Shown here piece after piece: positions 20,301-23,300 of a stretch of 64,000 nt of DNA. Within the stretch, counting starts at the first letter, position 1. The number at the start of each line of letters is the position of its first letter. A program made the position numbers. This DNA is from a phage, in the sequence record PZ674595.1; one strand, given 5' to 3'.

Positions 20301-23300
20301 CATTTGAGAAAAACGGAGCCTATCAGTTCAATAAATCACACTCCGTTGCTTATTCTTTAATCAGTTATCAGTCTATGTGGCTAAAGACGCACTACCCTGC
20401 TGAGTTCTTCGCAGCTGCGCTCACCATTCTGGGCGAGGATAAGCATCAGGGGCTGGTGAAGGATGCGCTGACCTATGGCATTCGCGTATTGCCACCAGAC
20501 GTTAATGTGTCATCTAACCGAATTGAGATCCGCACACTCGAAGACGGCAGTCAGGCACTGTATGCGCCATTCTCTGCTGTGAAAGGCTGTTCTGAAAATG
20601 GTTGTCAGGCAATTATGCGTGCGCGTGAGAAAGTTGGTGGCAAATTCGAGTCAGTGGCACAATTCGATGAAGCGGTCGAGAAGCGTGCATGTAACAGTCG
20701 TGTACGCGAGTCGCTTCATAAAGTAGGGGCTTTTGCGTCAATTGAGCCAGGCAGTCTGCCAGCAACTGATCCTGAACGACTGCGCGACCAGGCTGAGCTG
20801 ATGGGCAATCTCATCATTGACGCTGTTAAAGCATCACGTCCGTTCGAAATGAATCCTAAGCGTTCTGCCGAAATCAACGTACTCATGACACGTATGGCGG
20901 CTGAAATGGGCTTGGGTGAGGAGTTGATACGCCCGACTATTGGTATTAAACCCAAAATCATGATCATTCTGGACAATGCGAACGGCAATGACGCTCGTAC
21001 CGGCTACTTCATGGAGAACGGATACGACGACTTTAAGGCAAAACTACTGACAGTTGGAGATCTGCGCATGGGCGATCTTTATGTCACGGGTGTTTGTAAG
21101 AAGGTTAAGGACAAAGAGAAAGACTATACCAAAGACGAGATAGGCCAGTTCACAGACTTTATGCGGGAAGAAATTAATCTTGTACGACCAACCTACATTT
21201 TGACGTGTGGTAGTCGTTCAACCGCACTATTTAACAATAAGAGTAAACCATCAGATCTGATTGGTCGTAAGGAGTACTTCCCAGAGCTTGATGCAACCGT
21301 CTTCTACGGATTTAACCCGAATATCCTGTACTTCCGACCGGAAGAAGGAGAGCGACTGGAGGCCATTCTGGCTGATATCGCGGAGACAATAAATAAGTAA
21401 TAAAGAAAACCCGCCTGTTGGCGGGTTTATAAAGAATTATGGCGCTTGTTGAGGAAGTCACTCCTCTTACGCACTTTGTTTTGCCATGCCGGCAGTTAGC
21501 TTCTGCCTTTGACTATTCATGCGGCAACCCCGCATTTCGCCACAATGGGCAATTCACTTTTATGGAATAAACTGGCCGTTGTGTCGATTTAATTAGCATG
21601 GCCTTACCATGCTAATTTATTCAACTTGTACAATCCTACAAATCTATCCACTCAGGCTTACACCGTCTTCGTTATTGTAGAAATGAGGATCATCAGCGTT
21701 GAATCAGCTTAGAGCAACGACATTTGCTGCTGCTGGGCCTTTAGCCCCATTCTCGATAGAGAATTCGACCTGCTGGCCTTCTTCCAAAGTGCGGAAATTA
21801 TTACTCTGAATTGCCGAAAAATGTACAAAAACATCTTTACTGCCATCAGCAGGAGAAATAAAGCCAAAGCCTTTATCAGAGTTAAACCATTTTACTAAAC
21901 CAGTCATTTTATTAGACATAGATATTACCTTCTTAATTTTGTGAGCCACATAGTGCGGCGAGAATTTGATCTGTATAGATTGGGACTTACTTAGGCACTT
22001 AAGGAGGAGACTCACGAAGAAGGGAAATCAGAAGATAACACTGAACTGAGACTGCTTTACTAAAACTGCTTACATAAGGTCTGTCTTGCAAACCAACGAT
22101 GCTATTAACGCATACCCCTTCTTTTCATGCAACCTTTATTTTTCAAAGATAACTAATTTTTGTCACCATTGGTTTAGTAAACGTTAACGAACCAGACGAT
22201 GCCAGACACCTTTACAGAGAACAGATGCCCGCCAATTGGCGGGCATCATTATGCGCATTTCGCAATATCTTTGCGGCGTTTAATCAGTTTCTCCGCAATT
22301 TGCTCTATTTCGTTGAAATCTTTCGAGACGCTGTTTCGAAGCGCCAGATTCCATTTACTCAAAGTTCGGGCATTTTGGACAATTTGATCGCCCTCTTTAA
22401 GTCGTCCGTTATTCATGAGCCATTCAGCCACATCAGCCCAATCCCAGAGAGGAGACTGGCCTTTTATGCGTTGTACAGGGCAAGGGAAGTCGCCGCTTCC
22501 GCGCTTACCGTCTTTGAGCAACGCCACTGCCTGGCGAGACAGGTCTGTCAGTTCCGCGATATCGCTTAAGCCCACAAGAGCCGAGTCGACGGATTCAACA
22601 ATTGCACCGATACCGGCTGATTCAATATTGTCGACCGCAGATGCGATAGCTGCATCAAGTGATTGTGCTTCGCGGTCAAATTCTACATAGACGGAGTTTC
22701 CATATGCGCAAATTAGCGCATCGTCACAGCCGTTTTGGTACAGCGCGTCTTCCAGTCCTTCCGTCTCATACGATACGCCTGAGAGCGTCAGAGTGAAGTT
22801 ATAAAGCGCCATAGTTTTCCTTTGAAGATAGTTGGACAGTTTCTGCAAAAGGCGGCTAATGCCGCCTTGAAATCATTTACAACGATCAACCATTCGTTTG
22901 ATCTGTTTGGCATGGTTTTCGGGATTACCCGGAGTCGACCATACGCTCATTTGGTGAGTTTTGTGTTCACCTTCTGGATTACCGCATCGCAGTCTGCAAA
23001 AACAATGTGCAGCACCACCAGCTGCTACCCAGATCCAGCCTTTACTTAATGCATAGTCAATGGCTGCTTGAATATGCTTATTCGGATGTTGCTTCATTCG
23101 CCTCCGATAATAGTATTCTATTCACAGTGTTGACATCTGTCAACGGCGACTGAATTTCATCCGTTCATGCCACACCCCCATCCATCTCATGTATGTGACC
23201 TAAAGATGGTCAGCACAGCTTACCAAAATAAGACAACTAATTATCTTCGGTGATCTCAATATTTTTCCCCTGAACAAAGTTGACATGACGCCATAAACCC

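Follow-up and report, generated by a model that had tools for sequence, protein, structure and literature searches.

A HicA-like candidate toxin and a non-HicB partner in a putative toxin–antitoxin cassette of an SSU5-type phage-plasmid

The window analysed here, a 64,000-nucleotide stretch of phage sequence record PZ674595.1, belongs to an SSU5/pHCM2-like phage-plasmid and carries on its minus strand the two-gene cassette that is the subject of this work. An earlier reading made from the sequence alone had placed there a 74-aa open reading frame (ORF) followed by a 187-aa ORF, together with a perfect palindrome overlapping a TTGACA −35 element, and had proposed a HicAB-like toxin–antitoxin (TA) module. 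Both ORFs, here called A and B, and the palindrome are present as described, and the palindrome is unique in the window. An automatic ORF call extends B back to a TTG codon at 22848; as the homologs all begin at MALYNF/MxxYxF, the ATG at 22812 was taken as the start of B. The features of the cassette, in order of transcription, are listed below.

23129-23144: 16-bp perfect palindrome GTTGACATCTGTCAAC, a putative operator for the helix-turn-helix (HTH) of B; overlaps the −35 hexamer
23115-23143, minus strand: sigma-70-type promoter, TTGACA (23143-23138), 17-nt spacer, TAGAAT (23120-23115)
23101-23105, minus strand: Shine-Dalgarno sequence GGAGG of gene A, read from the sequence
22873-23097, minus strand: gene A, 74 aa; putative toxin with a predicted HicA-like α-β-β-β-α fold and a probable Cys/His metal site
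22818-22822, minus strand: ribosome-binding site AAGGA of gene B, read from the sequence
22249-22812, minus strand: gene B, 187 aa; N-terminal domain, HTH and C-terminal helical extension
22582-22812, minus strand: N-terminal domain of B (N-domain), aa 1-77; conserved partner of A and putative neutralising domain
22408-22578, minus strand: HTH of B, aa ~79-135, LSDIAELTxLSRQAxxxL...FPxP...W.W..VA.WL; putative operator-binding domain
22249-22407, minus strand: C-terminal helical extension of B, aa 136-187 plus stop; Enterobacterales-type B only
22224-22247, minus strand: intrinsic-terminator-like hairpin GATGCCCGCC-AATT-GGCGGGCATC followed by TGTTCTCTGT; ends the A-B unit

The complete unit spans 22224-23144. 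Its promoter matches the consensus at 11 of 12 positions and is the best promoter-like site in the region, and the whole −35 hexamer lies within the palindrome. The 64 kb window contains a single match to a generalised form of the palindrome, where 0.01 would be expected by chance. The GGAGG of gene A is also kept upstream of enterobacterial homologs. A and B are separated by 60 nt and share one promoter and one terminator. The terminator-like hairpin, which did not figure in the earlier description of the cassette, starts 2 nt past the stop codon of B and has a 10-bp stem with 8 G-C pairs and a T-rich tail. The presence of promoter, palindrome, both genes and terminator therefore indicates that the cassette is a closed transcription unit. 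In an Rfam scan the only hit was an adjacent cspA thermoregulator; the cassette itself yielded no RNA, antitoxin or other, which speaks against a TA system of type I or type III.

To place the cassette in its family we used loci from a scan of GTDB genomes, of which the best 80 of 192 were analysed. The pattern GTT[GT]AC-N4-GT[CA]AAC was found upstream of A in 46 of the 53 loci whose B bears an HTH, and in none of the 24 whose B is short. It lies 43-69 nt upstream of the ATG of A, and most of the seven HTH-bearing loci that lack the exact pattern are off by one or two bases; one of the carriers is a Balneolales genome. Across homologous loci the four central bases and the flanks of the palindrome are unconserved, and a TAnnnT −10 element stands at a fixed distance. 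As the presence of the palindrome tracks that of the HTH domain, we link the two and regard the palindrome as a putative operator for B. At some loci of Moraxellaceae, Acinetobacter and Mixta (L039, L041, L053 and L059) the palindrome lies inside a longer perfect inverted repeat with arms of 13-25 bp, which suggests an extended operator or an extra hairpin. A diverged A-B pair on a 108 kb contig of Yersinia pestis NCTC5923 (L012, 8001-8888) has a palindrome with a degenerate right arm (GTTGACACGCGCTCAC) and an A lengthened to 83 aa.

Pairing of the two genes is nearly obligate. A gene encoding the B N-domain was found directly downstream of A in 79 of the 80 loci, in several phyla: in 77 a B homolog on the same strand was detected by tblastn, and in two (L077 and L082) an N-domain ORF was recognised by inspection. 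The sole unpaired locus (L073) has a truncated A. Between intact genes the gap ranges from −4 to +148 nt. The partner itself varies in length. Short forms of 83-98 aa, consisting of the N-domain only, occur in Planctomycetota, Latescibacterota and some other phyla; forms of 144-154 aa occur in Pasteurellaceae, Acinetobacter and Neisseria; and long forms of 172-195 aa are mostly from Enterobacterales, with others from Saccharospirillum and a Balneolales metagenome-assembled genome (MAG).

Loss of one gene was seen in one direction. Five loci (L017, L042, L054, L058 and L079) combine a disrupted A with an intact B, and among the 74 loci whose A is intact there is no case of a disrupted B. When IMG/VR was searched from the B side with a single-protein query, B was preceded by A in 40 of 45 loci. 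The remaining five, all SSU5-like (L206-L210), have lost A together with the first 21 codons of B, and we take these loci to be decayed, antitoxin-only remnants. In such a locus (for example L209, 2956-3516) B lies without A between the uvsY-like gene and dnaE, other sequence stands in place of its 21 initial codons, and csp is missing as well. Near-obligate pairing, an operator-like site that tracks the HTH, and loss of A only are together the signatures of a TA-like module.

The module is present in 110 of 5,426 complete E. coli genomes (2%), always on a plasmid. Diverged copies were found on plasmids of Enterobacter, Yersinia, Citrobacter, Cronobacter, Klebsiella and Salmonella; for Yersinia there are 63 plasmid records, with Y. 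pestis among those listed. Diverged matches to the B gene were also seen in PLSDB on ~100 kb Y. pestis plasmids. Elsewhere, homologous A-B pairs are carried by a P4-like satellite, beside a RelE/HTH_3 pair, and by a P2-like prophage, beside Phd/YoeB. Others lie in a small integrase/IS islet or stand as solitary two-gene inserts among housekeeping genes. Such contexts (an accessory island, P4-like and P2-like elements, solitary inserts) are typical of TA modules. A Pirellulales MAG (L066) has tandem A-B pairs ~500 bp apart, at 1235-1743 and 1959-2403, whose A copies are 53% and 44% identical to that of the window; either the pair was duplicated locally or two modules are stacked.

Protein A belongs to a large family. 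A profile search of 1.84 billion representatives gave 720 relatives at E ≤ 1e-3 and 272 at E ≤ 1e-10, and PHROGs assigns A to phrog_5923, function unknown. Nothing meaningful was obtained for A from Pfam or NCBIfam scans, in which HicA_toxin was absent at E ≤ 10, and none of 129 representatives of the family gave a convincing match to any Pfam family. Sub-threshold matches to RuBisCO_small (22 of 42 and 10 of 129 family members) were dismissed as chance or fold-level noise below the gathering scores; one family member, P0039 from Shewanella sp. 1180_01, is called 'ribulose bisphosphate carboxylase small subunit' in an NCBI record, a name that is almost certainly wrong. No significant match in PDB was obtained by sequence and profile searches with A, with B or with the N-domain of B, and lectin matches at E ~0.04 were judged spurious.

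Among the 129 representatives, H4, K7, W21, H31, C38, position 48, T55, P56, H62 and C73 are nearly invariant. H31 is found in 123 of them and is preceded by residues rich in Gly and Ser; position 48 is Cys in 106 and His in 18. An AlphaFold2 model of A built from 35 homologs has a mean predicted local distance difference test score (pLDDT) of 89 and the order α-β-β-(short α)-β-α, that is, the α1-β1-β2-β3-α2 order of the double-stranded-RNA-binding-domain (dsRBD)-like fold by which the HicA family is recognised. When the model was compared with PDB using Foldseek no HicA was retrieved, the best E value being 0.77; in BFVD the third-ranked match was an actinophage protein labelled 'HicA-like antitoxin' (TM-score 0.62-0.70). 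Alignment of the A and HicA profiles with hhalign gave a local match confined to α1-β1-β2, with aAIxyAexxGWxxxxsgxsxHaW against lIkmiexDGWxlvrvxGSHHhF. Its score of 23.4 (nominal P ~1e-3) was equalled by none of 300 column-shuffled controls (mean 9.8, sd 2.1, maximum 18.2). The HicA sequence set was checked against PDB 4c26 and 6g26, in which the chains have Ala at His24. The earlier suggestion that A loosely fits the HicA pattern thus finds a counterpart in this local profile match, but not in Pfam HicA or in the Foldseek comparison with PDB. We conclude from the predicted fold and one local motif that A is a distant HicA-like protein outside the Pfam-defined HicA family.

Proteins with dsRBD-type folds contact RNA through the N-terminus of α1, the β1-β2 loop and the N-terminus of α2. 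In the model of A, K7 is placed at the N-terminus of α1, H31 at the β1-β2 loop or the start of β2, and H62 at the N-terminus of α2, with H4 just before α1. By analogy, K7, H31 and H62 would therefore occupy the RNA-contacting regions of such folds. C38, Cys or His 48, and C73 cluster at the opposite end of the model and probably form a structural metal site.

In protein B the N-domain is the only portion conserved across all lineages, and it occurs alone as a protein of 83-98 aa in Planctomycetota and other phyla. It contains invariant D31, F45 and R47 and an FDREA motif. Pfam scans of 41 such domains found no HicB family, a profile search of PDB found nothing, and hhalign of the domain against 32 phage HicB sequences (P 0.05 over 11 columns) revealed no relation. 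A single-sequence AlphaFold2 model of B is unreliable (pLDDT 43); the N-domain in it has the order β-α-β-β-α-β, unlike the β-β-β-α-β (partial RNase H-like) fold of HicB. Pfam and NCBIfam scans of whole B likewise gave nothing meaningful, and a match to CagE_TrbE_VirB below the gathering score was set aside as chance or fold-level noise. B thus appears to be a non-HicB protein, with no relation to HicB detectable by these comparisons.

An HTH had been claimed for B, and we place it in the middle part of the protein. Members of the B family match HTH families of Pfam below threshold (TetR_N in 8 of 26, HTH_3 in 7 of 26 and Phage_AlpA in 5 of 26), but no family was matched above threshold. B also gives weak matches to phrog_66 and phrog_2790, 'excisionase and transcriptional regulator', and to AlpA in PDB 8c3t (E 0.7). 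No ribbon-helix-helix (RHH) signal was seen among the matches of this region. The HTH is therefore putative, and the PHROGs and PDB matches point weakly to an AlpA/excisionase type. The region shares with AlpA/excisionase proteins, which are HTH_17-like regulators of the MerR superfamily, the pattern LS..A.l.g.s....Y......G.FP.P.......W....V..W, and it is the resemblance to PDB 8c3t, Phage_AlpA and the excisionase-type PHROGs, all sub-threshold, that suggests the kinship. In contrast to such proteins, B has a large additional N-terminal domain and a C-terminal tail, and it is coupled to A rather than to an integrase. The C-terminal extension is missing from the 144-154 aa forms in the alignment and its helices come from the low-confidence model only; a role in dimerisation would be a guess.

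We compared the cassette with the HicAB systems of E. coli, B. pseudomallei (4c26/6g26), Y. pestis (HicA3B3, 4p78) and S. pneumoniae (5yrz). The likenesses are those of layout and of A. In both, the gene order runs from the toxin to a larger antitoxin that binds DNA, putatively so for B; the toxin is a small protein of α-β-β-β-α dsRBD-like fold, predicted in the case of A; A has a GW...G-S-x-H stretch at α1-β1-β2, with a nearly invariant His that starts β2; a palindromic operator, putative here, overlaps the promoter; and the antitoxin is modular, with a neutralising N-domain (putative in B) and an optional DNA-binding domain. On the other hand, A stands outside Pfam HicA_toxin and has additional nearly invariant residues (H4, K7 and H62), as well as a Cys/His cluster (C38, C/H48, C73) that HicA lacks. 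The B N-domain has no HicB similarity and an extra helix in its predicted order of elements, and the DNA-binding part of B lies in the middle of the protein, is neither a clear RHH nor an Xre-type HTH, and best resembles AlpA/excisionase-type HTHs. What holds of the HicAB-like proposal is thus the toxin-first layout with a putative operator over the promoter, together with the local likeness of A to HicA; a relation of B to HicB was not detected. The reading that can be defended pairs a HicA-like toxin with a non-HicB antitoxin and stops short of a genuine HicAB system.

The same locus has been named before. A 2.2 kb segment around the cassette is 99.7% identical in DNA sequence to Escherichia phage Cyrano (OV696614) and matches many non-mobilizable E. 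coli plasmids of ~110 kb at 100% identity. Cyrano is the SSU5-like phage-plasmid pLF82, in which CYRAN_51 ('HicA toxin protein') and CYRAN_50 ('putative antitoxin HicB') are listed as morons, and in LB-grown lysogens these genes were transcribed 30-fold and 14-fold, respectively, over the prophage background (PMC9928086). The text of that study of LF82 prophages has 'HicA-HicB for Cyrano', a name given without homology evidence or functional test (PMC9928086). Both Cyrano proteins are 100% identical to A and B of the window, and the HicB label for B is unsupported by the comparisons made here.

Taken together, we think it probable that the cassette is an autoregulated, type II TA-like moron of an SSU5-type phage-plasmid. 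As judged from the sequences, it has the generic marks of type II systems: an adjacent co-directional pair, an HTH with a putative operator over the promoter, and asymmetric decay. In the mechanism that we propose, A would be a toxic, RNA-targeting enzyme and a very divergent relative of HicA, with its conserved K7, H31, H62 and H4 placed where dsRBD-type proteins contact RNA. The N-domain of B would bind and neutralise A, while the HTH of B, probably as a dimer, would bind GTTGAC-N4-GTCAAC over the −35 element and repress the operon. Loss of the plasmid-prophage, degradation of B or a block of B synthesis, for example by an infecting phage, would leave free A to arrest the cell, with plasmid addiction and/or abortive-infection defence as the outcome. 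In all this, the toxicity and RNase chemistry of A, the binding of A by B and of the operator by B, and the biological role are what we infer.

Several points weigh against this interpretation. Pfam HicA_toxin (PF07927) gave no match in A, in 42 homologs (E ≤ 1) or in the 129 representatives (E ≤ 0.1), and the ungapped profile alignment sets H31 one column past His24, the catalytic residue of HicA, rather than upon it. The B N-domain has neither a known relative nor a reliable model, so that a neutralisation interface on it is purely conjectural. The asymmetry of decay rests on five loci, two of which are MAGs. The left arm of the palindrome doubles as a −35 consensus, and part of its conservation could be promoter-driven. 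Finally, for toxicity, neutralisation, RNA cleavage, DNA binding, plasmid stabilisation and defence, no experiment on any member of the family was found in the literature searched.

The same mechanism could also have been selected for another role, with the pair serving primarily in anti-phage defence and infection releasing or activating A so that the infection is aborted. PADLOC bears on this directly: A matches six PDC-M06A models (best E 1.2e-19) and B matches PDC-M06B (1.3e-32), and as adjacent genes match both sets of hidden Markov models the cassette is an instance of PDC-M06. Homologs are also found next to other TA pairs, in the accessory DNA of a P2-like prophage and of a P4-like satellite, and the cassette is a variable moron of a phage-plasmid that is expressed in lysogeny. 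However, the PDC-x systems of PADLOC are unpublished candidates (PMC11811056), and two others of them gave no defence when tested (PMC12409345). PDC-M06 is a computational candidate with no described mechanism or phenotype, so that the match provides a label rather than a function; no mention of PDC-M06 was found in the literature searched, nor, in work on SSU5 phage-plasmid TA modules, any functional study of the A-B pair. Moreover, many homologs are solitary among housekeeping genes, outside defence islands. We therefore hold a primary role in defence to be possible, though clearly the less probable account.

Two further explanations would change the nature of the pair itself. In one, the module is regulatory and non-toxic: B would be an AlpA/excisionase-like transcription factor with targets in the phage or the host, and A would modulate it as a small co-factor or sensor that binds metal. 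This agrees with the placing of B by PHROGs among 'excisionase and transcriptional regulator' families, with its RefSeq name of HTH or AlpA family regulator, and with the conserved Cys/His residues of A, which suggest metal binding. Yet many phyla keep A and the B N-domain without a DNA-binding domain, so that regulation cannot be the core function; the 64 kb window has no operator-like site other than that at the promoter of the cassette; and a selfish TA module is a better fit to the loss of A alone and to the solitary inserts in chromosomes. We consider this explanation unlikely. In the other, the polarity is reversed, the B N-domain being the toxic or effector part and A its inhibitor. Neither protein has a proven activity, and the invariant D31, F45, R47 and FDREA motif of the N-domain could be catalytic. 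In type II TA systems, however, it is the antitoxin that binds DNA and autoregulates; A has the likeness to a toxin, HicA, and is also the gene lost in decay, while remnants of B persist without it. A reversed polarity is accordingly very improbable.

A type II TA-like module is no new reading for this locus, in view of the Cyrano HicA/HicB naming and the PADLOC candidate, and type II TA systems are a well-known kind. What our comparisons and models add is a toxin that appears to be only a remote, metal-site-bearing relative of HicA and an antitoxin that appears not to be HicB, as well as a conserved putative operator tied to the HTH domain and a family whose breadth has no Pfam coverage. A and B lie above no Pfam threshold, and the family extends through Proteobacteria, Planctomycetota, Latescibacterota and other phyla; should A prove toxic and be neutralised by B, the pair would represent a new TA family. 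If so, the HicA fold would be extended to a metal-binding branch with an unrelated antitoxin domain, an instance of mix-and-match evolution of TA systems, and the PDC-M06 label of PADLOC would gain a mechanism. The cassette is carried by SSU5/pHCM2/pMT1-type phage-plasmids and could aid their stable carriage or the exclusion of other phages.

A wider proposal, which we advance tentatively and with more doubt than the reading of the cassette itself, is that A and B form a large uncharacterised TA/defence family across phyla, with 720 clusters at 50% identity. Its toxin would have branched off from the HicA/dsRBD fold, binding metal and using a His-Lys-His active site of its own. Its neutralising domain, without known relatives, would have been fused in Proteobacteria to an AlpA-type HTH reading GTTGAC-N4-GTCAAC, and the pair would act in both abortive-infection defence and addiction on phage-plasmids and P2/P4-type elements.

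The cassette lies in the replication and recombination region of the phage-plasmid. On one side is a DnaE-like polymerase gene, and on the other are uvsY-like, gp32-like single-stranded DNA-binding protein (SSB), exonuclease and recA-like genes. All the backbone genes from the DnaE-like to the recA-like gene are on the plus strand and the cassette is on the minus strand. The sequence-only reading had set the cassette between csp and the SSB gene; csp is indeed its neighbour on one side, but on the right the uvsY-like gene intervenes and the SSB gene comes after it. The surrounding features are as follows.

21367-23353: variable accessory island (csp and A-B), between dnaE and the uvsY-like gene of the backbone
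21704-21919, minus strand: coding sequence of csp, a cspG/cspA-like cold-shock gene; its own unit, with its own promoter-like site
23353-23784, plus strand: uvsY-like gene, the right-hand neighbour of the cassette; gp32-like SSB gene next

By blastn, homology to the phage-plasmid PhiR41_1 ends at 21366 and restarts at 23354, and PhiR41_1 has only ~160 bp in place of 21367-23353. As so little is present there, csp and A-B together make up an accessory island of ~2 kb. The megablast match to CMS-2020a and PhiR41_1 begins at 23374; a restart at 23354 or 23374 therefore sets the right border of the island just upstream of the start codon of the uvsY-like gene. Some 200 bp (23145-23352) separate the promoter of the cassette from this divergent gene, for which a promoter scan of the region found no clear sigma-70 promoter. 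The cspA thermoregulator in the 5′ untranslated region of csp is complete (RF01766, 185.7 bits, 21679-22097, minus strand). The csp gene is unannotated in the Cyrano record, and related csp copies are present in other coliphages.

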